Positions 2,446-25,593 of a stretch of DNA of 64,000 nt are shown piece by piece (within the stretch, counting starts at the first letter, position 1; each line of letters begins with the position of its first letter). The DNA is from an uncultured Candidatus Saccharibacteria bacterium (GTDB taxonomy: Bacteria; Patescibacteriota; Dojkabacteria; B142; OLB20): positions 661,910-725,909 of the forward strand of contig CAYWVD010000001.1 in NCBI GenBank assembly GCA_964461915.1, written 5' to 3'. Below the pieces are notes generated by a model that worked only from the letters and a program-made list of their open reading frames with translations, did not search any database and was not told where the DNA came from. The translations under genes and the position numbers were made by a program.

Positions 2446-5070
2446 TTAATTATACACCGACAATAGACTCATATCCAAAGTAATTATCTTTGTATTGTTA
2501 AGAATAAATATCTTATTATGATTTCGATCTGCAACAATTTCTTTAATATTGGTAAAATCATTCTCGTTAGATCCTGAATAAACATATTGCGCTACTAAAG
2601 GAATATCGGGCGTTCCTTTCTTGAAAACCAAAACCCTTTTATTAATTGGATCGGCAATATAAACATTAACACCATCGACATAAAGAGCTGTAGCGGCCAC
2701 AAAGTTATCCCCTTCATTCATTTTTTGAATATTGATAGTATCTTCCTTTTTATTGTAATCACGATATAATCCCAAATTCTTTTGAAGAGTAATATATATT
2801 CTTCCTTCATCAACTTTAAAATCGGTTGCACTAATTAAATCATCCCAGGTGTTTCTGTTAATCAAAGTACTATAGGTATTACCAGAGCGCGTATAGTATG
2901 AAATGTTCTTTTTTTCTGGATTCAATAAATATAATCTGGGATCTTTACCGCCAATAAGGGCAGCCTCAATTTGCGTTGTGCCAGCGATTTTCGACAAACT
3001 TGTAGCAGACATTTTTTTAACGGAATTATCCGCAAGATTAATTATACTTATTGCATTGTCTGGGGTTTCATCTAAAACCAATAAAGTATTATTGTTGGAA
3101 TCGAAAGTAATGGATTTTGGATTTGTAAAACCAGAAGCTACTTCTGCTCTATTGTTTCCATAATAATCAAAGGAATAAATTTTTCCAGCCTTACCATCAG
3201 CAAGGAATATTTTTGCATTCGCCAATTCAATATCTGTTGGATTTGTATTAGGGAAAATATCACCAAGATCAGCAATTACAGTAGCTTCGGTGATAGGAAT
3301 TATTCGATTAAATTGATTCCTTAGAGTTGTAATAGTTGTTTTTTCAGCAGAAATTTCTTGTGTTAAACTTGAAAAAGACTCGAGCTCTTTCAGTTTATTT
3401 TCTGCATCAGTAAGCTTATTGAGAGCCTGAATTTTCCGTTCATCTCCACCACTTGCTGATGTTAAATAAATTGCTTGTTCTTCAATTGTGTCAATTTCAT
3501 TTTGTACTTCGGTAAATTTTTGTCTTGCTAATTCTTCTTGCTCTTTGGTTTTTTGAGTATTTACTGCCCCATCAATACTATAATAAAGTATGGCTATCAC
3601 GAAAATGATTAAAACAAATAAAAATCCGTATCGTCTTTTTCTTGCCTGCTGTTGTAAATACAGATCACCATAATTTTTACCAAAGCCTAACCAATTATCC
3701 CAAACAAGTTCTTTAATTTTTCTAAAAATTCCAGTGAAGAAATTTTTGATTTTTAAAAGAATTACCTGATAGGTCTTCATGTTGGCAATATCCTTTTGTT
3801 TTTCAATCTGTTCTATTCTCGAAGGAATATTTACTTGCGTAGGCTGTATTTGTTTTATGGAATCACCCTCATGAACTATTAATGCAGGTTTATCTTTTTT
3901 GGTTGTTATGGATTTAATTTTTGTAAAGACACTATCTTTAAGGCCAATCAGCTTTGATTTAAAAGGGCTTATTTTTGTTGCGGTTTCTATTGCTTGTGGC
4001 ACATCTTCTGTGGCAGTTTCTAATCCATCATTTAAATCTTTATCGGTAGGGATTTCTTCTATTTGATCAATCTCAGTAGCTACTTGCTCTTTTTCATGAT
4101 TGTCTTCATTTGCTTCTTCTAAAATTTCTTCCCTATCTAAATCTCCATCTAGATCAAATTCATTTTCCTCATTTATAGTTTCAACTGATTTAGATTCTGC
4201 AATTAAATCTCCCACTGTGAGATCCTCATCTTCCACATCTTCTAATTTTTCGGTTTGGTCAGCTAGTATAATTGGTTCGGGTGGGACCGAGGGTTCTACT
4301 AACTCAGTTGGCTCTTCTTTAATTTCAGAATCAATATTTAGTAAAGCTTCTTCTGGTGTTGGTGATTCTTGTGATTTTTGTGCTTCTTTTACTTCGTCTA
4401 CATTTTTAATCTTATTTTTTCTATCAATATTAAACCCTATTAACATAGTTGCCACCTTTGATGAATCCTCAAAGACTCTGGTTTTTATTGGCTTTTCGTT
4501 AAAATCTTCGGTGACCTCTAAAATATCTTGCTTTAATATTTCTTTATCAAATTCGGGTGTACCTAATAAATATACATCGCCCCTTTTTGCCACTAGACTA
4601 GCCTCTTTGATCAAACCTGCTCCAGTTGGATCTTTTAAAACAGAACTAATTTCATTGAGCTCACCTTCCCGATTTATGTAAAGCTTACCACCCCCTAGAG
4701 ATACAACAAAAATGAGATCACCTTGAATAACCAATGTAATCATACTTAAATCAACACCTTCTTTGTCGGCATCATCATTTTTTAATATTTCTCTAAGAAA
4801 GTCTCCCGTTTTGATAAGTGCCTTTTCTAAAGCAACAATAACTGTATCTTTTTCATTTTCAAAATATGCTTCATGGAATCTATCTAGAAGGAGTCCACCT
4901 GCAGTTCCTAAAGAGAAATTCTCTGGCCCTTTAAGTTGAATAGCGGCAAAGACTTCTCCTCTTTTTTCTCTATACTCAGGATTCTGTGGTTTATATGCAT
5001 ATACGCTTGACCAAGTATCCTTTGAAGAAGTTCCAATAAAATATTTTTTTTGAATCAATGCTTCACTCAT
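2446..5070 (-). CDS. Large membrane-anchored protein. N-terminal PP2C-like (possibly degenerate) domain, acidic linker, single TM, coiled coil, and a C-terminal beta-propeller-like (NHL-type) repeat region.
   Basis: 874-aa ORF. The N-terminal stretch '...LSMITLVIQGDLIFVVSLGGGKLYINREGEL' resembles the PP2C 'tlvaali.gn.lyvanvGDSRayl..dg.l' core, but GGGK replaces GDSR. A D/E-rich low-complexity linker follows, then the TM 'FLFVLIIFVIAILYYSI'. Repeated '(V/I)Y(I/V)ADxxNxR(V/I)' -like strands lie near the C-terminus. Confidence 0.45.
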   Translation of the reverse strand: MSEALIQKKYFIGTSSKDTWSSVYAYKPQNPEYREKRGEVFAAIQLKGPENFSLGTAGGLLLDRFHEAYFENEKDTVIVALEKALIKTGDFLREILKNDDADKEGVDLSMITLVIQGDLIFVVSLGGGKLYINREGELNEISSVLKDPTGAGLIKEASLVAKRGDVYLLGTPEFDKEILKQDILEVTEDFNEKPIKTRVFEDSSKVATMLIGFNIDRKNKIKNVDEVKEAQKSQESPTPEEALLNIDSEIKEEPTELVEPSVPPEPIILADQTEKLEDVEDEDLTVGDLIAESKSVETINEENEFDLDGDLDREEILEEANEDNHEKEQVATEIDQIEEIPTDKDLNDGLETATEDVPQAIETATKISPFKSKLIGLKDSVFTKIKSITTKKDKPALIVHEGDSIKQIQPTQVNIPSRIEQIEKQKDIANMKTYQVILLKIKNFFTGIFRKIKELVWDNWLGFGKNYGDLYLQQQARKRRYGFLFVLIIFVIAILYYSIDGAVNTQKTKEQEELARQKFTEVQNEIDTIEEQAIYLTSASGGDERKIQALNKLTDAENKLKELESFSSLTQEISAEKTTITTLRNQFNRIIPITEATVIADLGDIFPNTNPTDIELANAKIFLADGKAGKIYSFDYYGNNRAEVASGFTNPKSITFDSNNNTLLVLDETPDNAISIINLADNSVKKMSATSLSKIAGTTQIEAALIGGKDPRLYLLNPEKKNISYYTRSGNTYSTLINRNTWDDLISATDFKVDEGRIYITLQKNLGLYRDYNKKEDTINIQKMNEGDNFVAATALYVDGVNVYIADPINKRVLVFKKGTPDIPLVAQYVYSGSNENDFTNIKEIVADRNHNKIFILNNTKIITLDMSLLSVYN

Positions 5071-11162: not shown

Positions 11163-11651
11163 TTAAGGATCTTTTATACAAACATCATAGAAAATAACAG
11201 TAAACCCAGGCACTCTAAGATCATTATAACAGTCGTTATTTTCACTAATTATCAACTTCATTAAAGAAGCAACAATAGGATAAGAAAGAAAAAACAAAAT
11301 AAATCCGATTCCCCATTGGATCATTCTCTTTTGAGCATCTTCAGGATCAATCTTAATAATGTACTTCAACTCATCGTTATAGCTCATGAGGTATAACGAT
11401 CCATTAGTTAGTAAGAGTAAGAAGAAAACTATCCCCCCAATTGCCCATGCAGTCCCAATCAACTGGACGACCATTAACTGTGCGTCACGAATAGTTGCAG
11501 GATTACACTCGGGGTCAATAGAATTAGCAGAACAATCTCTAAAAGAAGGCTCTGGTTCGGCACTAGCACCTAATGAGTAAGTCGGAACAAGCCAGAAAAA
11601 AGTAAATACTAGAAATATTACAAAGATTTGAAATATTTTTTTATTGAACAT
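11163..11651 (-). CDS. Pilin-like membrane protein, paralog 6: signal peptide, Cys-containing N-terminal segment, two-helix hairpin.
   Basis: 162 aa. Signal peptide 'IFVIFLVFTFFWLVPTYSLGA', helix 'LIGTAWAIGGIVFFLLLL', loop '...IDPEDAQKRM', helix 'IGFILFFLSYPIVASLM'. Cys residues lie in the extracellular parts. Confidence 0.4.
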   Translation of the reverse strand: MFNKKIFQIFVIFLVFTFFWLVPTYSLGASAEPEPSFRDCSANSIDPECNPATIRDAQLMVVQLIGTAWAIGGIVFFLLLLTNGSLYLMSYNDELKYIIKIDPEDAQKRMIQWGIGFILFFLSYPIVASLMKLIISENNDCYNDLRVPGFTVIFYDVCIKDP

Positions 11652-11657
11652 TTTTTA

Positions 11658-12242
11658 CTAATTTTGTATTGTTTTACATTCAGTCGGAAGTTCTTTCAAT
11701 ATTGTAGAATCTGAAACATTTTGTCCTCTGTATCTATTACAGACTTCTTGGTATGCATCTTCACAAGTTGTGCAATCATCACTTGAAGTGTCTTCTCTAC
11801 AAGCCTTACAACCAACAGATTCTGCAGCAGAAATACATGTTTGAAATAATTCTGGATTTGTTGGTTTTGCCCCAAAAATCACGAAGACTAAAACTATACC
11901 GATGATAGCAATAATCATTGCAGCTAATCCAAAAAAGATTGCTTTAATAGATTTTTGCGCCTTCTCCATTTCGCCAGGGTCTCCCTCAGATTTAATATAT
12001 TTGAAAGCAGCAATTAAAGCGTAAACGACTGAAATTAAAACTAAGCCACCTAATACTAAAAACAATACTAGTTGGACACGGCTATTTATATAATCAGTAG
12101 CACAAATACCTCCTGGTCCTAGGATTTGTAATATATCCAATAATTGCTTTGGAAGAATACTAACAGCACCAACCAAAGTGCCTGAAATACCAAAAAAGAC
12201 TAGTAATCCTAGTAATACTTTAGAAAGCTTGAATTTTTTCAT
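11658..12242 (-). CDS. VirB2/TrbC-like pilin-fold membrane protein with Cys-rich C-terminal tail (paralog 5).
   Basis: 194 aa. Signal peptide; helix 'LVLFLVLGGLVLISVVYALIAAF'; loop 'KYIKSEGDPGEMEKAQKSIK'; helix 'AIFFGLAAMIIAIIGIVLVFVIF'; then a tail with 7 Cys. Confidence 0.45.
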   Translation of the reverse strand: MKKFKLSKVLLGLLVFFGISGTLVGAVSILPKQLLDILQILGPGGICATDYINSRVQLVLFLVLGGLVLISVVYALIAAFKYIKSEGDPGEMEKAQKSIKAIFFGLAAMIIAIIGIVLVFVIFGAKPTNPELFQTCISAAESVGCKACREDTSSDDCTTCEDAYQEVCNRYRGQNVSDSTILKELPTECKTIQN

Positions 12243-12325: not shown

Positions 12326-12850
12326 TTAAAAATCTTCACACTCAGTCGTCCCCGATCCGGGATTAATTATGAAATGATATGTCCCAGACTTAAAATTCGC
12401 ATTCAGATACTCATTTGGCATTTGAGATACATTTTTTATTAAGCAACATTGAACATTTTCACCTGTGATACCCATCTGCTCTTGAGCAGCAATGTCCATA
12501 AAATAGAATCCACCCGTATTGTCATGACATTGAGCAAGCGTATAATTCCATTCGGTAAAATTTCCGACACCTAAAAAAGAACCAATAACCGATAAGACAG
12601 CAAAAAAAACCAAACCAACTGTGGCCGAAATCCATGTGTTTTTAATGAGTGTGAACCCTTCTTCCATGGCCTTTTCCATGCCACTTGTTGTTATTTTGTA
12701 GGCGGCAATAATAGTGAATACTATCCAAATAGCTAGCAACCCCATAAAGGCAAAGCTCAAAAGCCAGCCCACCCCGGCAGCAATTCCATTATCGAAAATT
12801 GTAGTGAAATTTGGTAATCCTAGATCTAAACCCAATGTAGGAAAATCCAT
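12326..12850 (-). CDS. VirB2/TrbC-like pilin-fold membrane protein with Cys-rich C-terminal tail (paralog 4).
   Basis: 174 aa. Helix 'WLLSFAFMGLLAIWIVFTIIAAY'; loop 'KITTSGMEKAMEEG'; helix 'ATVGLVFFAVLSVIGSFLGV'; then a C-terminal tail containing Cys (CC pair). Confidence 0.4.
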   Translation of the reverse strand: MDFPTLGLDLGLPNFTTIFDNGIAAGVGWLLSFAFMGLLAIWIVFTIIAAYKITTSGMEKAMEEGFTLIKNTWISATVGLVFFAVLSVIGSFLGVGNFTEWNYTLAQCHDNTGGFYFMDIAAQEQMGITGENVQCCLIKNVSQMPNEYLNANFKSGTYHFIINPGSGTTECEDF

Positions 12851-12866
12851 TTTTATTTAATAATAA

Positions 12867-13544
12867 TTAATTCGGAACCCACTTACCTTCCACGCAACTA
12901 TGCGAACCATCTTTATCTATTTGTTGCTCATAACAAACCCGGCCTGTATCAAATTCACTTACTTCTACTGTATAGCCACTCTTGGGAATAAAGGTAAAAT
13001 CAAATACAGAATCAGTTACGCCCAAGAAATTCGACAACAATTGAACAACTACAAAAGACATTATTACTATAATTGCCCCAATAATGGCATTGGTGTATAT
13101 TTTCCTTACTTCTTGAACTTTCTCAGGATTACCCTCTGACATTGCATGTTTATACCATCCATAAATTCCAAATAATACGACTCCCAAAGAAACCAATCCA
13201 AGGACAGCGTAAATTGCAGCCCTTAAATATATTAATAGCGCATCTGAACTTCCTACTTCAATTGGAATAGATAAGTCTTGATTCCAAACCATAGGAGAAT
13301 CAGTAGTACCATATTCACAGTATTGGCCTGCATCTACAATTGACCTCTTACATCTACTATTACAAATTGGCTTGCCCTCATCATCAAAAACACCTTCGCC
13401 AATAAGAAGTCTTCTGGCACATTCAGGGTCGACGATAAGATCTTCTGGACTATTTATAGATTCAGCATTAATTGGAAGTGTCGAAACCCGGAAGAATGAG
13501 GTTACGATTAAAAATATTCCGATTAAATTTAAAACTTTTTTCAT
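12867..13544 (-). CDS. VirB2/TrbC-like pilin-fold membrane protein with Cys-containing N- and C-terminal extracellular extensions (paralog 3).
   Basis: 225 aa. Signal peptide; Cys-rich segment; helix 'IYAVLGLVSLGVVLFGIYGW'; loop 'YKHAMSEGNPEKVQEVRK'; helix 'AIIGAIIVIMSFVVVQLL'. Confidence 0.45.
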   Translation of the reverse strand: MKKVLNLIGIFLIVTSFFRVSTLPINAESINSPEDLIVDPECARRLLIGEGVFDDEGKPICNSRCKRSIVDAGQYCEYGTTDSPMVWNQDLSIPIEVGSSDALLIYLRAAIYAVLGLVSLGVVLFGIYGWYKHAMSEGNPEKVQEVRKIYTNAIIGAIIVIMSFVVVQLLSNFLGVTDSVFDFTFIPKSGYTVEVSEFDTGRVCYEQQIDKDGSHSCVEGKWVPN

Positions 13545-13553
13545 AATATATAT

Positions 13554-13904
13554 TTAAAAACAACTTACTCCTAATAGTGCGCACATCGAATTAACAATGA
13601 CACCTGCCAAAGCAATGATTACAAAACCAATAATAGCGGATGTAATTATTTGCATGGACTTTTTTTCTTTTTCAGCATCCCCTGCTGCAGTCATTCTAGT
13701 AAAACCCGCGATGATCAATGCCGCAAGTAATCCGAGTGCTGTTAATGGGAAAATAATTCCAGTGAAAAATTTTATAACTGATGCTAAATCATTAAAGGGG
13801 CCAGGATTAGGAATCTCACTTGGATCTGAAGAAGATGTAGCCGAAACAGTAATTCCGGTGGTTATTAAAAAAGTTGAGATTAATAATAAAGATTTTTTAT
13901 ACAT
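13554..13904 (-). CDS. Minimal VirB2/TrbC-like pilin (paralog 2).
   Basis: 116 aa. Signal peptide 'LLLISTFLITTGITVSATSS'; helix 'FTGIIFPLTALGLLAALIIAGF'; loop 'TRMTAAGDAEKEKKS'; helix 'IITSAIIGFVIIALAGVIV'. This is the classic T4SS pilin topology. Confidence 0.5.
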   Translation of the reverse strand: MYKKSLLLISTFLITTGITVSATSSSDPSEIPNPGPFNDLASVIKFFTGIIFPLTALGLLAALIIAGFTRMTAAGDAEKEKKSMQIITSAIIGFVIIALAGVIVNSMCALLGVSCF

Positions 13905-13924: not shown

Positions 13925-15121
13925 TTAAAAATCATAAGGCAAAATGCCAAGTACATTTATTCCAATTATTCTAAGTATTAGTGTAGATGAAACCAATACT
14001 ATCGCACCAATTATTACAGACATAATGATATCCCAACTTTCTTGAATATCTTTTGGATCACCAGATTGTCTCAAAATGGCAGCCTGCATTAATCGAAGGA
14101 TCCCCACAGCACCTAGCACACCAATTGCTATTCTCATTATTGTAGTAACTAGTCCATTCATTGAAGTGTTTACACAGCCCAATGCAGAATAGACACAGGC
14201 ATCACATTCTTGTAGACAGCTTGTACAATTATTAAATTCCGCTGTGTCTTGGCCAAAAGCTTTGCATCCGATATATGCATTTAATTTATCTTTCCATTCG
14301 TCATACTCACCAGGAGTAAGAGCATCTCCGGCTACACAATAATATTCTCCACTACCCGTATTAAAAGGTGTGGGATCGGACCCGTCTTGGAAGCTACCAG
14401 ATGAAGTATCAGGGAAGCACTCAAGTCCTAATGAATTAATCTCGTCTTCAGTGTATGTACCCCTTCGAAGACCTGTAGCAGGATCGCCATCTTTAAAAAA
14501 ACAGTCCTGCATACCGCAAGTATATTTTGCTGTTGCTTCAAAAAAAACACCACTTAATTTACTAGCCGAATTTAAAGTTATTCTTGCGATAGGATCTTCA
14601 CCCTCATCACTTTCTGAACACCCTTCAAAACCTGTTCCTTTTAAGACTAAACCCGGATCTTTACAACAAAGCATATTGGTTCCAATCCAATTTTCGTATA
14701 AAAAAGGCCTATCAATTGAGCAACAGGCTTTATCTCCTTTATTAAAGGACATTGGCTCAAGGCCCTTTCTGCCTACAGCCGTGCCCACTGGACAATAGTG
14801 AAGGACTCCATTGCCAATGGCATCGTAGTTATGAATAGCTCCAACCTGAGTAAGATCTATGCACCATCCCTCACCATCTCTAATAAACTTATCCTCCCCT
14901 TTATACGGACTTTGAATCAAACCTGCAGCCTGAGCATCCTTTGGAGAAATTGTATTTTCTTCTGTGCACACAAATTGCCCAGACCATGCTTGATCAGTAC
15001 CTACAGTTGGTAAGACTCTTGGGTTTAATGGAGTATCAGCGAAAACTGAAGATGCATTTAAGTTAAGAACAAAAGCTAAGGGAACTACTAATAAAGATAA
15101 TAATCTTAAGAACTTCTTCAT
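13925..15121 (-). CDS. Secreted Cys-rich ectodomain (about 300 aa) fused to a C-terminal VirB2/TrbC-like two-helix hairpin (paralog 1).
   Basis: 398 aa. Signal peptide; over 25 Cys in the ectodomain; C-terminal 'TIMRIAIGVLGAVGILRLMQAAILRQSGDPKDIQESWDIIMSVIIGAIVLVSSTLILRIIG'. Confidence 0.45.
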   Translation of the reverse strand: MKKFLRLLSLLVVPLAFVLNLNASSVFADTPLNPRVLPTVGTDQAWSGQFVCTEENTISPKDAQAAGLIQSPYKGEDKFIRDGEGWCIDLTQVGAIHNYDAIGNGVLHYCPVGTAVGRKGLEPMSFNKGDKACCSIDRPFLYENWIGTNMLCCKDPGLVLKGTGFEGCSESDEGEDPIARITLNSASKLSGVFFEATAKYTCGMQDCFFKDGDPATGLRRGTYTEDEINSLGLECFPDTSSGSFQDGSDPTPFNTGSGEYYCVAGDALTPGEYDEWKDKLNAYIGCKAFGQDTAEFNNCTSCLQECDACVYSALGCVNTSMNGLVTTIMRIAIGVLGAVGILRLMQAAILRQSGDPKDIQESWDIIMSVIIGAIVLVSSTLILRIIGINVLGILPYDF

Positions 15122-17697
15122 TTTATTTCATATTCTCTTAAAGATTTAAATTCTATAATCCCACCAGATTCTAAGTCTTTTGAGATTATTAATTGAGCAA
15201 TTTTATCTTCGAGTTCATCTTGGATTACTCGATTTAACTCTCTTGCTCCATAAATTGGGTCGTAGCCCTCACTTACTATATCTTGCAATAATTTTTCTGA
15301 AAAATTCAACTCTATACCCTTATCTACTAGTGTAGCTTTAACTTTAAGCATTAGCAAGTTTGCAACCTGTAAGAGCTCAATAGGCCTTAAAGGTTTAAAC
15401 ATTATTACCTTATCAAATCTATTTAAAAATTCAATTCTGAAAATTTGTCTAATCTCTGGTAAAACAGATCTTGAAACATCTAAATATTTATAACCCTTAT
15501 TAATCAACTCTGCTATGCGATTTGAACATGCATTAGATGTCATTATAATAATTGTGTTTTTAAAACTTACTTTACGGCCAGATCCATCAGTAAGATGGCC
15601 CTCATCTAATACTTGCAAGAACAAATCTAAAACTTTGAAATTTGCTTTTTCAACTTCATCTAGTAGGATTAGGGAATACGGCTTACTTCGAACAGCATCG
15701 GTTAAAAATCCGCCCTCAAACTCCTCATCATTAGCTTCCCCTATTAATCTTTTCAAGTTTTCAGCTTCCTGATATTCTGACATATCCAGACGAATCATGA
15801 GTTTTTCATCGCCAAAATATTCCGCTGCAAGTGCCTTTGCAAGCTCTGTCTTACCGACCCCGGTTGGGCCAAAAAATAGAAAACTCGCTATTGGTTTGTT
15901 CGAATTTTGAAGACCAGCTCTTGCTCTTCGCATAGCATTAGATACGGCCTTAACAGCTTCGTCTTGATCAATTAGCCTTTTATGAATCTGATCTTCAAGT
16001 TTTATAAGTTTAGTAGATTCGGATTTAGTAAGGGCGCCAACATTTACGCCAACCTTTGCTGAAACGACCTCATCCACTTGGTGCTCTGATACAAATGAAA
16101 GCCCTTGAATTTGAGATTTAGAACAAGTTTCTTCAAGTAATTCTATAGCCTTATCAGGTAATACCCTATCGAATTGAAATTGATGTGATAGTTTTACGGA
16201 TTTAATTAATGAATCAAACTCAATATGTAGACTATATTTTTTTTCGAACGCAGGCACAACATCCATCAAGATCTGTAAAGCTACTTCGTCGGCTGGCTCA
16301 GCGATTTCAACTGTACCGAATAGAGTAGACAGAGATAATTGAGGTTCAATATTTTTTTTGTAGCCTTCGGGATTTGTCGAAGCTATAATCCTTAATTTGT
16401 AATTATCAATACCTTTAATAATCAAATTAATAATTTCTTGAGAATAGTCATTTCGAATATTAACTATTTGGTCAAAATCTTCGAGAACCAATACAATATT
16501 TCCGGCTTTATGAACTTCTTCGAGGACATTTTCGAGAATAGCTTTGAATTCGTTAATATCTTTTGATAAAGCAAATGCACGATTGAATTCAAAGCTAACT
16601 AGCCTTTTATCCTGTATTACTTTAGGAACATCTTCAACAACCATTTTTACACCAAGGCTTTTTATAAAAGTTGTTTTACCAACTCCTGGAGCCCCGATAA
16701 TTAATGTCGCACTAGCATCACCCTCTTGCACAAGCTGGATTAACTTTTCTAGCTCATTTTCGCGCCCAATTGAATATACAAATCCATCTTTAATAATTTC
16801 GGCAGTAAAATCTCGCGAATACTTTTGAAGAACAGGGCTAAATCTTGATGTAAAGCTTCTATTTACTGTATTTATTGGCTTTAATGCTGATCTTTCTTGA
16901 AATGTATTCTGATATTTAGTCCTTACGGATTCATTTTGAATCCAAAGCTTTAAGGAATTGACATTTTCAGCAGAAATTTCCCTCTTTAAAAGAATATTCT
17001 TTAAAGGTTTTTCGCATAAATACAAAAATACTGCGATTTCATCAAATCTCTCAAAATTTGAAGTTAGAGAAATTATAAAACCCTGTAAAAAAACTTCTTT
17101 GATCCAAATATCTTGATGAATATTCGATTCTAGTGCAAGTCTATTAGACATTTCTTTAAAATCTCTTAAGTTCACACCCAGTCTTGGAATTATCTTTTTT
17201 ACAGATTCTGTATCAAGAATGTAATCTAGTAGAATTTTTAAAAATTGATTTGGATCTTCTATTAAAACATCATCAAAAATATTTAAAAGCTCATTCGAAA
17301 TATAATTATCAATCTGAACTTCTGAAACTTCTTTATCATTAATTCTCTTCAAAAGAACGATCAAATTTTCTAAATGGTATTTATCATAATAATTTTCACG
17401 ATTTCTCTCTAGAAAAAACGCATATAAATAAAGTATAAAAGCACCCCAGAATATAATTCCTCCAAGAACTTTAATATTTAAAAAGTTCCAAATATAGAAT
17501 TCATTTATATTTATTAGATAGACAAAATCGACAAGCACGAGTACTGTAGCTATTATTCTTAGAAGTAATCCCAATCCTTTTTCAAATTTCTCTTTTTCTT
17601 GTCGATACCCATTATGTTTTAATAAGAAGTCCCAATCCACCTTGAGATCAACCCCACTCCAATTGCCTAAATTTTCAATACCCTTCAATATTTTCAT
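15118..17697 (-). CDS. Membrane-anchored ClpB/ClpC-like double AAA+ ATPase.
   Basis: 859 aa. N-terminal 2 TM helices ('LLLRIIATVLVLVDFVYL', 'GGIIFWGAFILYLYAFFL'); two Clp_N-like repeats; D1 Walker A 'IIGAPGVGKTT'; D2 'FFGPTGVGKTELAKALA...LLDEVEKA'; C-terminal ClpB_D2-small-like region. Only a short inter-domain linker is present, with no long M-domain. Stop and start overlap the adjacent pilin-like gene. Confidence 0.7.
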   Translation of the reverse strand: MKILKGIENLGNWSGVDLKVDWDFLLKHNGYRQEKEKFEKGLGLLLRIIATVLVLVDFVYLININEFYIWNFLNIKVLGGIIFWGAFILYLYAFFLERNRENYYDKYHLENLIVLLKRINDKEVSEVQIDNYISNELLNIFDDVLIEDPNQFLKILLDYILDTESVKKIIPRLGVNLRDFKEMSNRLALESNIHQDIWIKEVFLQGFIISLTSNFERFDEIAVFLYLCEKPLKNILLKREISAENVNSLKLWIQNESVRTKYQNTFQERSALKPINTVNRSFTSRFSPVLQKYSRDFTAEIIKDGFVYSIGRENELEKLIQLVQEGDASATLIIGAPGVGKTTFIKSLGVKMVVEDVPKVIQDKRLVSFEFNRAFALSKDINEFKAILENVLEEVHKAGNIVLVLEDFDQIVNIRNDYSQEIINLIIKGIDNYKLRIIASTNPEGYKKNIEPQLSLSTLFGTVEIAEPADEVALQILMDVVPAFEKKYSLHIEFDSLIKSVKLSHQFQFDRVLPDKAIELLEETCSKSQIQGLSFVSEHQVDEVVSAKVGVNVGALTKSESTKLIKLEDQIHKRLIDQDEAVKAVSNAMRRARAGLQNSNKPIASFLFFGPTGVGKTELAKALAAEYFGDEKLMIRLDMSEYQEAENLKRLIGEANDEEFEGGFLTDAVRSKPYSLILLDEVEKANFKVLDLFLQVLDEGHLTDGSGRKVSFKNTIIIMTSNACSNRIAELINKGYKYLDVSRSVLPEIRQIFRIEFLNRFDKVIMFKPLRPIELLQVANLLMLKVKATLVDKGIELNFSEKLLQDIVSEGYDPIYGARELNRVIQDELEDKIAQLIISKDLESGGIIEFKSLREYEIK

Positions 17698-17703
17698 AAA
17701 TAT

Positions 17704-18024
17704 TTAAAAAACAAACAATGATATTAGTGGTAAAACCGGTAAAGCCAAATAAAGAAAAAATCCTAAAAATACTGCTACAGAGTATAAAAATAAAATGATC
17801 GAGCCCAAAAAAGCCCATAAAAGCCTAAAGGGAAAAGCTACAACCTTCCCTTGCCAAGACTCGTCTTGAAATAATGGCACAAATAAGTTTTTTGCCATTG
17901 GAATAATATTTAGATAAGCAAGAAAAAATGACCAATCCGAAAGGATTTTCTTTAAATGTTTTTTAGCCTCGACGAAGTACCACCAGACCCAAAAGTTCAG
18001 TATGTAGTTCTGAATTAATTGCAT
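17704..18024 (-). CDS. Small membrane protein (3 predicted TM).
   Basis: 106-aa hydrophobic ORF directly upstream of the Clp-like gene on the same strand. Confidence 0.4.
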   Translation of the reverse strand: MQLIQNYILNFWVWWYFVEAKKHLKKILSDWSFFLAYLNIIPMAKNLFVPLFQDESWQGKVVAFPFRLLWAFLGSIILFLYSVAVFLGFFLYLALPVLPLISLFVF

Positions 18025-18081: not shown

Positions 18082-18111
18082 AATAATCCCGACTTTTATG
18101 CCGGGATTATT
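18082..18111 (-). terminator. Perfect 10-bp inverted repeat (AATAATCCCG...CGGGATTATT) downstream of groEL; putative transcription terminator.
   Basis: Stem and loop seen directly in the sequence. The T-tract is weak. Confidence 0.35.
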
Positions 18112-18132: not shown

Positions 18133-19767
<1,635 letters not shown>

Positions 19768-19785
19768 TTAAAAATTAAAATATGA

Positions 19786-20085
19786 TTAGTTAATAACTGC
19801 AAGAATAGAATCTTCGTCCATTATTAAATATTCTTCGCCATCAACTTCAACTTCATCTGGTGAATATTTTTTAAATATAACTGTATCGCCAACTTTTACA
19901 CTAAAAGGAAGTCTTCTCCCATCCATGCTTAGCCTACCGGCTCCAAGAGCAACAACTTCTCCCTTTTGGGGCTTCTCACCCTCTGATTTATCAGGTAATA
20001 AAATTCCACCTAAGGAATACTTTTCTGGAGAACTTGGCTTGACCAATATATTAGCTCCCATTGGTGTAATCTTTAATTTTGCCAT
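19786..20085 (-). CDS. groES: Co-chaperonin GroES (Cpn10).
   Basis: 99 aa: 'MAKLKITPMGANILVKP...GGILLPD...GEVVALGAG', immediately upstream of groEL. Confidence 0.9.
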   Translation of the reverse strand: MAKLKITPMGANILVKPSSPEKYSLGGILLPDKSEGEKPQKGEVVALGAGRLSMDGRRLPFSVKVGDTVIFKKYSPDEVEVDGEEYLIMDEDSILAVIN

Positions 20086-20221: not shown

Positions 20222-22135
20222 CTAATCTAGGGCCGAGGTTTTTGTAAGTGAAATTTTTGAGACATCATCAGGAATCATTTGCCAAGCATAAGGGATATAT
20301 GAAGGATTATACCTTATTGTGACCTGCTCTATTCCGCTAATATTCTTAATATATTCTTTAGCTTCATTAACGGATTTACCTTTAATCTCCACTTTAAGAA
20401 TTTCTAAATCGATATCGTTTGCAGTTGATGCATTTGCCTTAATATCGAATGTTGCGATATTGTCTTTTATAACTATATTTTCAATAACCGGCTCACTAAC
20501 GGATACTTTGGCTACGCTATATTCACTTTTTAAGGACTCGGTTAAGATTGTTTTTAGATCAGATTTTGTAACACGCATTATTGAAAGTGTCATCTTAAGA
20601 TCGGCAGTAAAATTATCCGCCTTTTCGTTTTCTTTAACATTGGTAGTAAAAGACACCTCAGTAAATTTTTCACTACCCAATAACAATTGATCATCAACAG
20701 ATAATAAGTTTTTGATATCGGCTAGTAATGTTGTTTTTACTTGTTCGACCATACTTGCTTTTAAAGCCTCAATATCGGATTTTGCCAAAACATTTATTTC
20801 GGTTTTGGTGCCACCTGAAATTTGAGAGATATTTGAAGCGGTTACATCGGCAAAACCAGAAATTGTGAAATCTTGAAGAGTCTCTTTAATATTGTATTGC
20901 TCGCCAAAGGTTTCGGCGACAATTGTTCGAGTGTCACCCTTAAGAGCGTCTATGGTTATATCTTCTTGAGTTTTATACTTTAATGCAGTGTTATTTTGAT
21001 AAGTTAGTATGGTACCAGCCTTAATCGTTACCGGTTTATTAGAAGTGTTCATAAGAGCAACGGATCCTTTTGCGCTTTCACCCTCGGCCCCTTTACCTGT
21101 TGTTAAGGCTTCCGATGACAATGTACTTTCTTTAGTAATTTCGGTAGCAGGTACAATCAAATTTGGGATGTCCAACTGAGTAACATCTTTTTTGCCGGTT
21201 ATGCTCTTTTTAGCACTCAGTTTATTTTCGCTAAATTTGATATTGATATCGACAGAAGAAAAGAAGTAGAAGGAAACACCAAAGAATGCTACAAAAGCCA
21301 ATAAAAATCCGATTATGAATTTTTTAAACGAAACAATTTTGCCTATTTTTTGAAAAAATTCTTTTATCTTAACAAAAAATGCCCCGCTAGAATTGCGGGT
21401 ACGAGTCCTGAATGTATCACCAACACTATTCAATTGTTCTGTAACATCCTGCCCTACAAGGCCGGGATTTCTTCTATCCATATCTTTATCCTGATTCGCT
21501 AATTCTGAATCACTTGTTAAGTTTACTACTTTTTCAGGATTATTTCTATTCCTTTCTAATTCAAGCAATTCAACATGCTCATTAATATCTCCCCCTGAAT
21601 ATATTTTAAGATTACCAATATCAACAACTTTAGCCTTAATTCTGGGTTTTTCAACCGCCGGGAAATTAGTTGGAGTAGGCTCATCAAGAATTTCTGCTTT
21701 TACAAGTTTAGCCGTCTTTTCCTGTCCCTGAATTTGATCAGTTTGAGATTCGATATCTTCATCATCTACTACTCTTTCACCGAGTAGTTCGGCCTTTATA
21801 CGATTAATTTCGTCTATCATCTTGTCCTTATTTACCTTTGAAGCCATCCAGGATTCCTTGGTGATTTCACTAACTCTTTTACTTATAATAAGCCCTGCTT
21901 TTTCGCCCAATCCAAAAGAACCTTCATTATCTGAAACTAAAATTGCTAATTTCGGCGTTCTTAATAATTGCCTTGATAAGATTTTTAAACTGACTGCGCT
22001 ACTAATAAGAGCTGCCGTACTTGGAACAATTAAAATTACTCTATTGGTAGGAGCGTTAAGAATTTTTTCAATTATAAAAACGATTTCTTCGTCCGGTTCT
22101 ACAAATATTTTTAATGGTTTATTAGTATATGTCAT
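20222..22135 (-). CDS. Hypothetical bitopic membrane protein: about 260-aa cytoplasmic N-terminal domain, one TM, about 350-aa extracytoplasmic domain.
   Basis: 637 aa; TM 'FIIGFLLAFVAFFGVSFYFF'. Translationally coupled to the upstream FtsA-like gene (4-bp overlap). Confidence 0.5.
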   Translation of the reverse strand: MTYTNKPLKIFVEPDEEIVFIIEKILNAPTNRVILIVPSTAALISSAVSLKILSRQLLRTPKLAILVSDNEGSFGLGEKAGLIISKRVSEITKESWMASKVNKDKMIDEINRIKAELLGERVVDDEDIESQTDQIQGQEKTAKLVKAEILDEPTPTNFPAVEKPRIKAKVVDIGNLKIYSGGDINEHVELLELERNRNNPEKVVNLTSDSELANQDKDMDRRNPGLVGQDVTEQLNSVGDTFRTRTRNSSGAFFVKIKEFFQKIGKIVSFKKFIIGFLLAFVAFFGVSFYFFSSVDINIKFSENKLSAKKSITGKKDVTQLDIPNLIVPATEITKESTLSSEALTTGKGAEGESAKGSVALMNTSNKPVTIKAGTILTYQNNTALKYKTQEDITIDALKGDTRTIVAETFGEQYNIKETLQDFTISGFADVTASNISQISGGTKTEINVLAKSDIEALKASMVEQVKTTLLADIKNLLSVDDQLLLGSEKFTEVSFTTNVKENEKADNFTADLKMTLSIMRVTKSDLKTILTESLKSEYSVAKVSVSEPVIENIVIKDNIATFDIKANASTANDIDLEILKVEIKGKSVNEAKEYIKNISGIEQVTIRYNPSYIPYAWQMIPDDVSKISLTKTSALD

Positions 22136-23376
22136 TTGTTATTTTCTAAAACCATTCTAGCTAAAGATAGTGGCGTTACATCCATCGGATCGATAATTGA
22201 CCTTGTAAGATCTTCAATTTCATCAAGATTTTTTGGATACAAAAACTCTACCCTCGGAAATTTCATAAAATGTAATACTTGAAGCCAAGGATGTTCCATT
22301 AATGCAGTTTTCACTTCCGGTAAAGCAGACGACCCTCCGCAAAGATAAATAACTGAAGGATAACTCTCAACATCTTCAATTTCTTTTAACCCAAGTTCGA
22401 CTCCATCCGCCCAAACCTGAAAGTCCTTGACCAAAACCGATTTAATTTTATCGGACTCAGCCTTTTGAGCTTTACCATTAGAATAGCTAATTTTCAAATC
22501 TTCCGCGGCATTAAGATCGATACCAAAATCGTGAGCCATCCTTTTAGTGATAACTCTTCCTCCAAAGGCGAACATTTTTGTTCCAGCCACAACTCCCTTT
22601 TCGATGACGGCAATATCGGTAGTTCCACCGCCCAGATCAAGAATAATCGCATTAAAGTCTTCTTTTCTGCCCCCGGCAATAGCCCTAGCCACCGCATAAG
22701 GCTCTACCTCAATATTGATAAGTTGAAGATTTAAGTTTTTCGCAACTTGTTTTAATGAATTGATATGAAGGGATGGGGCAAAAGTTGAAAATACTCTGTA
22801 TGTAATATTTTTACCAGTAAAGTTTGTTGGATCATCGACCTTAACTCCATCAATATATGTTGCGTTAATTTTTGTATTTATCTCCTCGAGGGATTCGGGT
22901 TTAACGCCAATTTCTTCTGCAATATCAATCAATGCGTCGTTAAATGCTTCTTCTTTAATATGTTTTATTACATCGTCAAGTTCTTTCTGGATGATTTTAA
23001 CCTTGGGATTTTCTCTTTCATAATCAGCCATTATGGTAACCCCCCTTACCAACTCGCCTGCAATACCTATTATGCATTTTCGAGGGATCATTAATCTACT
23101 GTTTTTATCTTTGGAAGGATTGTGCTTCTCGGCATAGGCTATTGCCGAACCTATAGCCATATCGCACGCATTTGTTACATTTTCAATATTAATGATCATT
23201 GCTCCCTGCATTGAATTTGTATGCTGTCTGCAACGACCATATCCTTTGACGAATATTTTCTTTTCTATTGAATCTACCGTAAAAAGAACCGCTTTTACAT
23301 ATTCAGTACCGATATCTAGGGCAACTTGAACTTCACCCTCCTTTGATTTCTTTTTAAAAAAACTGAGAAACGACAA
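22132..23376 (-). CDS. FtsA/PilM-like actin-family ATPase.
   Basis: 414 aa with phosphate-1 'VALDIGTEYVKAV', 'ILDLGGGTTDIAVIEKG' and 'FAFGGRVITKRMAHDFGIDLNAAEDLK' motifs of FtsA-type actin homologues. No ftsZ is adjacent. Confidence 0.55.
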   Translation of the reverse strand: MSFLSFFKKKSKEGEVQVALDIGTEYVKAVLFTVDSIEKKIFVKGYGRCRQHTNSMQGAMIINIENVTNACDMAIGSAIAYAEKHNPSKDKNSRLMIPRKCIIGIAGELVRGVTIMADYERENPKVKIIQKELDDVIKHIKEEAFNDALIDIAEEIGVKPESLEEINTKINATYIDGVKVDDPTNFTGKNITYRVFSTFAPSLHINSLKQVAKNLNLQLINIEVEPYAVARAIAGGRKEDFNAIILDLGGGTTDIAVIEKGVVAGTKMFAFGGRVITKRMAHDFGIDLNAAEDLKISYSNGKAQKAESDKIKSVLVKDFQVWADGVELGLKEIEDVESYPSVIYLCGGSSALPEVKTALMEHPWLQVLHFMKFPRVEFLYPKNLDEIEDLTRSIIDPMDVTPLSLARMVLENNK

Positions 23377-24096: not shown

Positions 24097-25593
24097 TTAG
24101 GAGAAGACTCCAATATCGAGCGGAATGTATTCCTTGAAATTATCTTTTGTTACTCTGTAAACTTTCCCTTCGTTAAGGACGATTTTCTTTGCTATTTTGC
24201 GGACAAACATCCTTAAAGTCCTTTCGAGTTGTCGAATACCGGCGTCAAAACCTAGAGGCCTAATAACAAGAGGCCAAACATCATCATCGAAAATAATATT
24301 GTCATTAGTAAGCCCCGAATCACTCATTACCTTAGGCAATAAATAATGCCTAGCAATATTTATTTTTTCTTCGTCTGTATACGAAATCATACGAATAATT
24401 TCCAACCTATCCAAAAGTGCTGCAGAAATTCCACCAAGATTATTTGCCGTACAGATAAATACGCATTTAGAAAGATCGACCGGGAAGTCCAGATAATGAT
24501 CTCTAAAAGCATAATTCTGTTCAGGGTCAAGGATTTCCAAAAGAACAGCCATAACATCTGCTTGAACGGAATTTTCTTTTGAAACCTTGTCAATTTCATC
24601 AAGAAGAATTAACGGATTCATTACGCCCGACCTGATAAAAGCCTTAATAATTTGGCCCGGCTCAGCATTTGGCTCACTAGTCACAACACCTCTTAATTCG
24701 GTAACATTGGCAAGGCCTCCTAAAGGTATTCTGATGAATTGTCTATTTAATGCGGCGGCAATAGATTTTGCGATTGAAGTTTTTCCAATACCCTGTACAC
24801 CCACAAAACAAATAACTGGAGCCCTACTTATCGCCTCTTTATTTTTTAAATCCACCTCAAATTTTGTAGGACTTTCTGGAGCGGCTTTTTCTGCTTCTAT
24901 GACAGTTGCTGTTTTGGGATCAATATTTCCTTCCAGAATTTGTTCCGGAGATTTTGCCATATTTTGGATTGAATCCACCTGAGGCTCCTGCTTTGCTCCC
25001 GGAGGCAACACTGCCCTTGCGGCCGATTCAATCGCAGAATCGACCTCTTTTTCTTCAATAATCTCTTCTGGATTTTCTTCTTTTTTTTCGTGGATATCTA
25101 TAACGCCCGATTCATTTACTTGCTGAGTTGGCATTGATGGCGCTGAATCTAATACTTTTGCCTGAGACTCTTTTTGCTCAAGATAAATTTTATTGGATTC
25201 TTCACGAGTAGGAGTACCTGATAAAAACTTCTCTTGATTTGAAAGCAGATTTAACATTGCGACATATTCCAACAACCTTTCCTTTACACCTTCTAATCCA
25301 AAATGGGTACTGTCTAATTGTCTTTTGACATTGCCAAGATCTAAATTGTCTTCGGTGGATTTGTTCCAGGGTATCCTAGTTATCCATCCGATATATTTTT
25401 CGACAGGCTCAAATTCTTTTGAAAAATAGCCATACTTGGCTAACCTCTTAAGTCTGTTAAGCATATTTAAAGACTTAGTTTTTAGTTCCTGTGGAAGGTC
25501 AGCACCTAAGACTTTTGCTTCAAGGGATTCTATTTCGGCTGTTTCTTCAGAAGATATTACTGGAGTATTGTCGGAATTTTGGGGCAATGACAT
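24097..25593 (-). CDS. Lon-like AAA+ ATPase module lacking both the LonN substrate domain and the C-terminal protease domain.
   Basis: 498 aa. 'WITRIPWNKSTEDNLDLGNVKRQLDSTHFGLEGVKERLLEYVA' aligns with the Lon pre-AAA region. 'ICFVGVQGIGKTSIAKSIAAALNRQFIRIPLGGLANVTELRG...PGQIIKAFI...PLILLDEIDKV' is the Lon AAA+ core. The protein ends at '...GIRQLERTLRMFVRKIAKK...', where Lon normally continues into the Ser-Lys protease domain. A convergent gene abuts the stop. Confidence 0.65.
   Translation of the reverse strand: MSLPQNSDNTPVISSEETAEIESLEAKVLGADLPQELKTKSLNMLNRLKRLAKYGYFSKEFEPVEKYIGWITRIPWNKSTEDNLDLGNVKRQLDSTHFGLEGVKERLLEYVAMLNLLSNQEKFLSGTPTREESNKIYLEQKESQAKVLDSAPSMPTQQVNESGVIDIHEKKEENPEEIIEEKEVDSAIESAARAVLPPGAKQEPQVDSIQNMAKSPEQILEGNIDPKTATVIEAEKAAPESPTKFEVDLKNKEAISRAPVICFVGVQGIGKTSIAKSIAAALNRQFIRIPLGGLANVTELRGVVTSEPNAEPGQIIKAFIRSGVMNPLILLDEIDKVSKENSVQADVMAVLLEILDPEQNYAFRDHYLDFPVDLSKCVFICTANNLGGISAALLDRLEIIRMISYTDEEKINIARHYLLPKVMSDSGLTNDNIIFDDDVWPLVIRPLGFDAGIRQLERTLRMFVRKIAKKIVLNEGKVYRVTKDNFKEYIPLDIGVFS

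Follow-up and report, generated by a model that had tools for sequence, protein, structure and literature searches.

Clp/Hsp100 ATPases are textbook soluble threading machines. We describe here a membrane-anchored member of this superfamily, TM-Clp, encoded in a 64,000-nucleotide (nt) stretch of DNA from an uncultured Candidatus Saccharibacteria bacterium that GTDB places in the Dojkabacteria (contig CAYWVD010000001.1, positions 661,910 to 725,909; the whole stretch is termed the window). The 859-amino acid (aa) TM-Clp (15118-17697, minus strand, ATG start) was recognised as a class-I Clp/Hsp100-derived ATPase by means of Pfam, NCBIfam, alignment to ClpB, an AlphaFold2 model and Foldseek. The open reading frame (ORF) directly upstream, SMALL (17704-18024, minus strand, taken from the list of ORFs), codes for a membrane protein of 106 aa and stops 6 nt short of the TM-Clp start codon. 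The span 15118-18024, singled out by an original prediction from the letters of the window, corresponds to these two minus-strand ORFs.

When compared to ClpC and ClpA, TM-Clp has the Clp_N double repeat, the first (D1) and second (D2) AAA+ modules and the D2-small domain in the same order, and its D2 is ~35% identical. Unlike these proteins, TM-Clp carries a membrane hairpin, lacks the ClpP loop, has no clpP nearby and is nearly always paired with SMALL; its D1 is devoid of the Arg fingers and has neither the Walker-B Glu nor a Tyr in the pore loop, and the GYVG motif of D2 is replaced. ClpB/Hsp104 is the best-scoring family for the D2 sequence and is likewise ClpP-independent, but TM-Clp lacks the M-domain coiled coil and both pore Tyr residues, has a D1 that appears inactive, and is anchored.

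The layout of TM-Clp is closest to those of FtsH and the torsins, although it is a member of neither. As in FtsH, an AAA+ ring in the cytoplasm is tethered to the membrane by two N-terminal transmembrane (TM) helices, and the FtsH pore loop resembles the F-V-G loop of some Dojkabacteria TM-Clp proteins; however, TM-Clp has no M41 domain, and its double ring is of the Clp type, whereas FtsH has a single AAA ring of the classic clade. Torsins are related to Hsp100 D2, associate with the membrane, have no pore-loop aromatic, are thought not to thread their substrates and need a membrane partner. They form a single ring and lack an Arg finger of their own, whereas the D2 of TM-Clp keeps its Arg finger and is accompanied by an apparently dead D1 ring; the likeness considered here is that of the general Clp D2 fold. 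VirB4, VirB11 and PilB/PilT belong to ATPase families unrelated to TM-Clp; what they share with it is a proposed job, the handling of small hydrophobic pilin subunits at the cytoplasmic face, and, in Dojkabacteria, the position in the operon.

By its double AAA+ architecture, its Clp_N domain and its fold TM-Clp belongs to the class-I Clp/Hsp100 superfamily, from which it departs in D1 catalysis and in its aromatic pore loops. A branch that is anchored, that would have turned D1 into a pseudo-ATPase that has largely given up the Tyr pore loops and that nearly always has a small membrane partner would be a surprise for AAA+ specialists, and provides the field with a natural test of an Hsp100 ring without canonical substrate-gripping loops. 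Our literature search found no paper on a membrane-anchored Clp in the Candidate Phyla Radiation (CPR, Patescibacteria), nor on a Clp-like gene in the dcw cluster (genes of division and the cell wall) of CPR.

We propose that SMALL and TM-Clp constitute a two-component membrane-embedded AAA+ machine. TM-Clp would assemble as a hexamer on the cytoplasmic side of the membrane, with D1 acting as a nucleotide-binding scaffold, comparable to the inactive rings known in other double-ring AAA+ proteins, and D2 as the sole motor. With SMALL, it would remodel, extract or help to assemble membrane-embedded clients and would not degrade them. That the pair is a ClpP-independent, D2-driven general membrane-protein remodeller with lineage-specific clients is a proposal on which we are evenly divided.

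Anchor, domain layout and motifs of TM-Clp

By Kyte-Doolittle hydropathy TM-Clp has a first TM helix at residues 38-67 and a second at 71-97, and the AlphaFold2 model (mean pLDDT 82, pTM 0.67) has helices at residues 31-63 and 78-96. TM helix 1 (residues ~31-63; 17509-17607, minus strand as for all features of TM-Clp) was assigned by hydropathy, the modelled helix and family conservation, and TM helix 2 (residues ~78-96; 17410-17466) by hydropathy and the model. These helices are preceded by a tail (residues 1-30; 17608-17697), with a beta-hairpin predicted by AlphaFold2 at residues 7-21. In an alignment restricted to Dojkabacteria (A3), G11 and G30 of the tail and R32 and E34 at the start of TM helix 1 are conserved. 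Having crossed the membrane twice, the polypeptide would leave both the N-terminal tail and the ATPase in the cytoplasm. The anchor of two TM helices fused to a Clp derivative, as the original prediction had it, is thus borne out, and is typical of the relatives: N-terminal TM segments are present in 85 of the 86 full-length family representatives listed.

A divergent Clp_N-like double-repeat domain (residues ~132-250; 16948-17304), all-helical in the AlphaFold2 model, follows the anchor. The two Clp_N-like repeats that had been read from the sequence are recovered at the profile level only: hhalign matched a profile built on residues 100-300 of 123 relatives to canonical Clp_N over both repeats (probability 97.7%, E 1.4e-12), and Clp_N was not among the best 25 Pfam families listed for TM-Clp. 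The relatives P0042, P0125 and P0204 match Pfam Clp_N, weakly in the case of P0042 and P0125.

In the remainder of the protein Pfam detects AAA (residues 332-452), AAA_lid_9 (471-537), AAA_2 (601-763) and ClpB_D2-small (774-848). The motifs noticed earlier, GAPGVGKT in D1 (335-342) and GPTGVGKT followed by LLDEVEKA in D2 (610-617 and 678-685), are in place. In a phmmer search of the PDB the best match of D2 was in ClpB (1qvr, E 1.6e-117), and Foldseek retrieved ClpC and ClpB as best matches, with E values down to 6e-47 (ClpC). The linker between D1 and D2 is short, as noted before, and the M-domain of ClpB is absent: residues 305-848 are collinear with ClpA 184-731, ~95 residues of ClpB (~408-503) find no counterpart, and the model contains no long coiled coil.

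Known Clp and AAA+ classes were considered in turn. A ClpB disaggregase was rejected, with no M-domain and an NCBIfam ClpB score (TIGR03346) of 493.9 bits against an equivalog cut-off of 1232.1 bits; the ClpA equivalog cut-off is likewise not reached (413 vs. 993 bits). ClpV/TssH was rejected at 393 vs. 885 bits, and no type VI secretion system genes were found among the annotated neighbours. FtsH was discarded in the absence of a Pfam Peptidase_M41 match, and VirB4/TrbE or T2SSE/PilT families did not match TM-Clp among the best 25 of 40 Pfam and 46 NCBIfam families.

The motifs were read from a 130-sequence alignment (37 homologues from Dojkabacteria and 85 distant representatives, with 7 canonical Clp proteins as comparators; family columns, n = 122) and from a residue-level alignment of TM-Clp to ClpB structures. 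In the D1 module (residues ~306-540; 16078-16782; delimited by the ClpB alignment and column frequencies) the Walker A GAPGVGKT of TM-Clp is kept, and the Walker B reads L-E-D-F-D instead of I-D-E-x-H; at this position Dojkabacteria have (D/E)-D, and other relatives D, E or N followed by N, D or E. The RRF Arg fingers are changed to T-L-F in TM-Clp and to x-L-F across the family, whereas the 7 canonical comparators keep both IDE.H and RRF. The pore loop reads A-L-S-K-D-I-N where A-G-x-K-Y-R-G is canonical, with K-D-I-N for K-Y-R-G, and many distant family members have lost the D1 Walker A as well. From these motifs, D1 is probably a pseudo-ATPase: its ring would bind nucleotide without hydrolysing it.

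The D2 module with D2-small (residues ~560-850; 15148-16020; Pfam, ClpB alignment and column frequencies) has the residues G, T, G, V, G, K and T of Walker A in 122 of 122 relatives and the P in 119. The D-E of Walker B, the sensor-1 Asn, the Arg finger (EFLNRFD) and the sensor-2 GAR Arg are invariant (122/122), and by its motifs D2 is catalytically intact. At the position of D2 pore loop 1 (residues 653-663, GEANDEEFEGG, aromatic F660; 15709-15741; located in the alignments) the canonical G-A-P-P-G-Y-V-G-Y has given way to a shorter polar loop in the family, which in TM-Clp is acidic and contains a single Phe. A Phe or Tyr is conserved in this loop in all 37 Dojkabacteria proteins, some of which read F-V-G, an Ar-phi-G motif. 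The aromatic kept in Dojkabacteria makes some threading capacity possible in that lineage.

The position of the ClpP-docking loop reads N-K-G-Y-K in TM-Clp and polar-G-polar in the family consensus, while the comparators carry LGF, IGF, VGF or MGF. No [ILV]-G-[FL] tripeptide is found between D2 sensor-1 and the Arg finger of TM-Clp, as the original prediction had stated, and tblastn, run as the check for a nearby clpP, detected none in the 64-kb window; a role as ClpP partner was rejected on both grounds. In an internal control, 21 non-anchored Clp proteins obtained with the same DNA pattern as the metagenome loci described below, IDE.H was present in 17, GYVG in 15 and [VML]GF in 16.

These data show that (i) the view of TM-Clp as a stand-alone, membrane-tethered unfoldase, neither a ClpP partner nor a ClpB disaggregase, stands as regards the tether, the missing docking loop and the missing M-domain; and (ii) its description as a complete Clp-type unfoldase does not, with a degenerate D1 and a non-canonical D2 pore loop.

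The TM-Clp family and its partner SMALL

An exhaustive HMMER profile search with the N-terminal 322 residues of TM-Clp (alignment A2) against 1.84 billion representative proteins yielded 700 clusters (50% identity) at E<=1e-3; at the stricter E<=1e-10, 354 remained. A word-index search with the same alignment returned zero matches; since HMMER retrieved 700 clusters from A2, this empty result reflects a limitation of the word-index method. With the Dojkabacteria-only alignment A3, 11 loci were retrieved, all of the Dojkabacteria type. Homologues of full length with 45-96% identity all fall within ~858-862 aa and carry the source names Dojkabacteria or WS6, and three relatives at ~30% identity share the hydrophobic N-terminus. 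In their sources the family members are labelled 'ClpC' or 'AAA family ATPase' and originate from Parcubacteria, 'Patescibacteria group' and Dojkabacteria. The TM-Clp family is thus large, typical of Patescibacteria and hidden under 'ClpC' labels.

Outside Dojkabacteria we analysed 50 loci, of which 42 were metagenome loci and eight were distant relatives looked up individually. The metagenome scan used a D2 motif, EF[LIV]NRFD..[ILV].F..L, that is present in 101 of 126 family members and in 0 of 16 canonical Clp proteins. It yielded 120 loci with 74 complete ORFs; 42 of these had N-terminal TM segments and a length of 780 aa or more, fell into 41 distinct clusters and were 30-38% identical to TM-Clp.

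SMALL is the near-universal and near-obligate partner gene of TM-Clp. It lies directly 5' of the ATPase gene in all Dojkabacteria loci, in the eight distant look-ups (8/8) and in 38 of the 42 metagenome loci. The upstream ORFs of the eight look-ups encode 123-133 aa, and a hidden Markov model (HMM) of SMALL, built from Dojkabacteria sequences only, recognised seven of the eight with E values of 3e-15 to 2e-5, the eighth (L005) being marginal (E 0.009). The protein has no Pfam or NCBIfam family match. It carries the motifs F-W-x-W-W-Y, L-x-N-L-F-x-P-L-F/Y-Q-D and G-R/K-I-I-A-F-P-I-R, after which comes a hydrophobic hairpin at the C-terminus; W-W-Y, L-K-(N/T)-L-F-x-P and G-R-I-I-x-F-x-x-R are common to the distant homologues. 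Patescibacteria genomes are tiny, and a conserved two-gene module is therefore likely to be important for envelope biology. For work on CPR bacteria it represents a concrete and genetically tractable candidate envelope module, often found in the division and cell-wall cluster and, in one class, tied to VirB2-like arrays implicated in epibiotic life.

A lead towards such genetics comes from Southlakia epibionticum. Its gene SEML1_0700 encodes an 860-aa 'AAA family ATPase' with a weak D1 match, strong D2 and D2-small matches and no Clp_N match, and its upstream end is overlapped by 22 nt by SEML1_0701, a hypothetical gene of 127 aa (PMC10633639). The transposon sequencing (Tn-seq) calls of the two genes are identical (NE, NE, GD), and a canonical ClpC (SEML1_0512, with two Clp_N domains and UVR) and a ClpP (SEML1_0493) are encoded elsewhere in that genome (PMC10633639). 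SEML1_0512, being a canonical ClpC, was dropped as a TM-Clp homologue. Judged from the table annotations, SEML1_0700 and SEML1_0701 are probably a homologous TM-Clp/SMALL pair, laid out as in the window and with matching mild Tn-seq defects. If this assignment is correct, the module coexists with a canonical Clp system, is non-essential under the Tn-seq conditions, and its two genes behave alike.

Gene neighbourhoods and candidate clients

In the window, the stop codon of TM-Clp overlaps the start codon of the next gene, pil398, by 4 nt in an ATGA (AAAATGAAG; 15118-15121, minus strand, read from the sequence). This overlap with a first pilin-like gene, together with a 106-aa membrane protein just upstream, had been pointed out earlier and was found as described. 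All six genes of the array that starts with pil398 are on the minus strand and encode proteins with a signal peptide and a two-helix hairpin, several of them with Cys-rich ectodomains; the intergenic gaps of the block range from -4 to 83 nt. In pil398 (13925-15121) a signal peptide and an ectodomain of ~290 aa, containing 18 Cys, precede a VirB2-like hairpin at the C-terminus, and residues 318-385 match the Pfam family T4SS_pilin with E 6.6e-6 and 26.6 bits, exactly the gathering score of 26.6 bits. Pil116 (13554-13904) is a minimal VirB2-like protein, with signal peptide and hairpin, that scores above this cut-off (E 3.7e-8, 33.8 bits) and is assigned by NCBIfam to Mbov_0395, a pilin-like conjugal transfer protein (E 7.9e-9). 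Pil225 (12867-13544), with a VirB2-like hairpin and Cys-containing flanks, falls just under the cut-off (E 1.3e-5, 25.6 bits), and pil174 (12326-12850), a hairpin membrane protein, well under it (E 0.0086, 16.6 bits). The last two genes also encode hairpin membrane proteins: pil194 (11658-12242), which is matched by an array HMM built on the Dojkabacteria hairpin domain, and pil162 (11163-11651), with which the array ends.

The order SMALL, Clp, pil398, pil116, pil225, pil174, pil194 (1-4 copies), pil162 is conserved in 12 of the 12 distinct Dojkabacteria loci, window included (L001-L004, L008-L020), with Clp identity decreasing to ~47%. A pil398 orthologue occupies the same position in all of them, and the 4-nt overlap with the Clp gene recurs in at least six, L003, L012, L014, L015, L016 and L017. 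Both flanks of the block vary; the 3' side is occupied by sbcD-sbcC in part of the loci and by unrelated genes in the rest.

The pil194-type paralogue itself occurs in 1-4 tandem copies among Dojkabacteria (L003, L012, L016, L018 and L020, compared with window 11658-12242), which suggests that one surface protein has expanded locally. At the remaining five positions of the array the genes are mostly single-copy, and L001 has two pil398-type genes.

The six genes fit the description of the arrays of 2-11 divergent VirB2-like genes reported in Patescibacteria, where 383 assemblies were found, in part with the same Pfam model, to contain 441 of them (PMC12102498). Those arrays were treated either with regard to virB4 clusters or as stand-alone (PMC12102498), and the main texts of PMC12102498 and PMC10633639 do not mention a Clp or AAA ATPase in any connection. 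Among the large ORFs of the window no VirB4, VirB6 or VirD4 was recognisable.

In terms of the general remodeller proposed above, the most likely clients in Dojkabacteria would be the six VirB2-like hairpin proteins, because they are translationally coupled to TM-Clp. The machine might release them from a membrane pool, or chaperone them after insertion by YidC/Sec.

The original prediction had gone further and suggested that TM-Clp may be a new type of pilus or secretion ATPase: a dedicated motor that extracts or polymerises the co-operonic VirB2-like subunits, in the manner of VirB4 or PilB/PilT. The ATGA coupling and the adjacency in 12/12 Dojkabacteria loci, even where the linkage to groES-groEL is broken, favour such a motor, as does the make-up of the six downstream products, all hairpin membrane proteins with a signal peptide. 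Dojkabacteria also retain the D1 Walker A and the aromatic of the D2 loop (F-V-G in some), unlike many relatives. There is, moreover, a precedent for ATP-driven pilin extraction, VirB4 being reported to dislocate VirB2 from the membrane. Outside Dojkabacteria, however, a T4SS_pilin gene was found near TM-Clp in 0 of the 50 loci, and the array HMM, which recovered 106 Dojkabacteria ORFs, gave zero matches in the 120 scanned loci even at E<0.05.

Genes for type IV pilin-like proteins (N_methyl) do occur beside distant TM-Clp genes of unrelated lineages, with seven consecutive ones directly 3' of the ATPase in L023 (5769-9731) and five within 4 kb of it in L098, which could be taken in favour of a pilus motor. 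Such arrays are present in 1 of the 42 metagenome loci and 2 of the 50 loci overall, a frequency close to chance in pilin-rich CPR genomes, and we discounted them as an independent link to pilins.

Other data also speak against the pilus motor. Table S1 of PMC12102498 lists at least two Dojkabacteria genomes as VirB4-positive, so that the usual ATPase of type IV secretion systems (T4SS) is available to the class. In Southlakia, a member of the Saccharibacteria, the VirB2-like array sits inside the essential T4SS cluster (PMC10633639), whereas the probable SMALL/TM-Clp pair is non-essential. D1 is apparently dead and the GYVG loop is absent. The pilin-gene neighbourhood among homologues thus holds within Dojkabacteria (12/12) and fails elsewhere (0/50). 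The claim of a new ATPase type is not sustained for a Patescibacteria-wide family with SMALL as its near-universal partner, and is further weakened by the loss of the Tyr pore loops, by the VirB4 of the Dojkabacteria genomes in that table and by the lack of relationship to VirB4, VirB11 and PilB. We regard the dedicated pilus motor as decidedly unlikely.

Upstream of SMALL, groES-groEL (18133-20085, minus strand) are usual but not obligate neighbours in Dojkabacteria. Their directly upstream position, in the window as well as in most of the Dojkabacteria loci, and best sequence and fold matches to ClpB and ClpC, would be consistent with TM-Clp being a tethered general heat-shock or proteostasis chaperone, the ClpB/ClpC equivalent of reduced genomes, co-regulated with groES-groEL. 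This linkage, however, is broken in four Dojkabacteria loci: 1-1.4 kb are inserted before SMALL in L011, L012 and L014, and in L020 groES-groEL are absent within 6.9 kb. GroEL is found within 5 kb in 0 of the 42 metagenome loci outside Dojkabacteria. The M-domain and both Tyr pore loops, needed for disaggregation, are missing, the NCBIfam scores lie far under the equivalog cut-offs, and in Southlakia a canonical ClpC and ClpP exist separately. A heat-shock chaperone is, in our judgement, very improbable.

Apart from SMALL, the commonest neighbours of TM-Clp outside Dojkabacteria are mraZ-rsmH-ftsL-ftsI and mraY. In 14 of the 42 metagenome loci mraZ/rsmH lie within 5 kb (9 downstream, 4 upstream), compared with ~1% expected by chance. 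Two arrangements recur, SMALL-Clp-mraZ-rsmH-ftsL-PBP in 9 loci and mraZ-rsmH-ftsL-SMALL-Clp-mraY in 4 (PBP, penicillin-binding protein), and SMALL/TM-Clp are located within the dcw cluster or at its 5' edge in L077, L079, L083 and L099, and in L052, L067, L070, L091, L094, L095, L096 and L144. A MraY-like gene is located downstream in 5 of the 42 metagenome loci; a separate gene of this kind is seen in L021, L057, L077, L083 and L099 and directly adjoins the ATPase gene in all of these except L057. In P0204 (L025, 4240-7935) a 1231-aa ORF fuses an anchored Clp-like ATPase to a C-terminal Glycos_transf_4 (MraY-like) domain. The genes downstream of TM-Clp in the eight individually looked-up relatives encode RRF/RseP, a bPH protein, a MraY-like Glycos_transf_4 protein, mraZ-rsmH-PBP and N_methyl proteins.

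The general remodeller would accordingly be expected to act, in most other Patescibacteria, rather on membrane proteins of cell division and the cell wall, as suggested by the dcw cluster and MraY. A narrower reading is that the SMALL/TM-Clp role is specific to division and peptidoglycan precursors (e.g. MraY, FtsL, FtsI, FtsW), the pilin adjacency being secondary and functionally meaningless. The recurrent dcw arrangements (9 and 4 loci) and the Clp-MraY fusion support it, and so do a Mur-ligase gene that divergently adjoins SEML1_0700/0701 in Southlakia (PMC10633639) and an FtsA/PilM-like gene two to three genes upstream in Dojkabacteria. On the other hand, two-thirds of the sampled loci, many of them on short contigs, have no dcw gene within 5 kb, the 64-kb window contains no dcw genes, and the strict translational coupling to pil398 is left without explanation. 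We consider this specific role unlikely.

The general remodeller itself has to be weighed against several points. The neighbourhoods of TM-Clp are heterogeneous, comprising pilins, dcw genes, MraY, TGT and RRF, and this mixture may be housekeeping synteny and not a set of client relationships. The Dojkabacteria loci, which carry the link to the VirB2-like proteins, represent a single class and are phylogenetically non-independent. The hexamer, the topology and the contact between SMALL and TM-Clp are all predicted, the clients are proposed from gene neighbourhood, and the role of the family is deduced from its sequences. Finally, the D2 loop may lack an aromatic in about half of the family, 55 of 119 members (scored by regular expression, with 16 of the 55 unparsed). 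Classical threading or extraction may therefore not be the conserved activity, and TM-Clp could instead work as a non-threading ATP-driven switch, which for the family as a whole is equally possible.

A bolder version of the same idea combines a Patescibacteria-core extraction and assembly machine made of SMALL and TM-Clp with a lineage-specific duty: in Dojkabacteria it would be the dislocase or assembly motor of the six VirB2-like proteins, and their surface filament or adhesin system would be driven by an Hsp100-derived ATPase and not by VirB4. We hold this combination to be quite improbable.

Further features of the window

The 108-nt gap between the groEL stop and the SMALL start contains a perfect 10-bp inverted repeat (AATAATCCCG, 10 nt, CGGGATTATT; 18082-18111, minus strand). 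It is not followed by a T run and was not called by the terminator scan; it may mark an operon boundary or form a regulatory hairpin. Promoter and terminator scans returned no more sites than in shuffled sequence. The G+C content of the window is low (~0.31-0.39). Together with its other genes and the names given to homologues, this assigns the window to a chromosome of Dojkabacteria (WS6, Patescibacteria/CPR).

Further upstream of groES-groEL, at 20222-23376 (minus strand), an FtsA/PilM-like gene of 414 aa overlaps the gene of a 637-aa protein whose sole match is Baseplate_J (E 5.5e-6). This pair is usually located 5' of groES-groEL in those Dojkabacteria loci that reach far enough upstream. 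At 24097-25593 (minus strand) the window encodes an AAA+ protein of 498 aa, which has a single ring and a Lon_lid domain and in which a protease domain was not detected; the order YidC, Jag/KhpB, L25 and 498-aa AAA+ protein is also kept in the Dojkabacteria loci L001 and L003. An 874-aa ORF at 2446-5070 (minus strand) has no Pfam match. On the plus strand, the window also encodes an 835-aa protein with four bPH_2 repeats (40938-43445) and a full-length phosphoketolase (XFP; 28815-31169).

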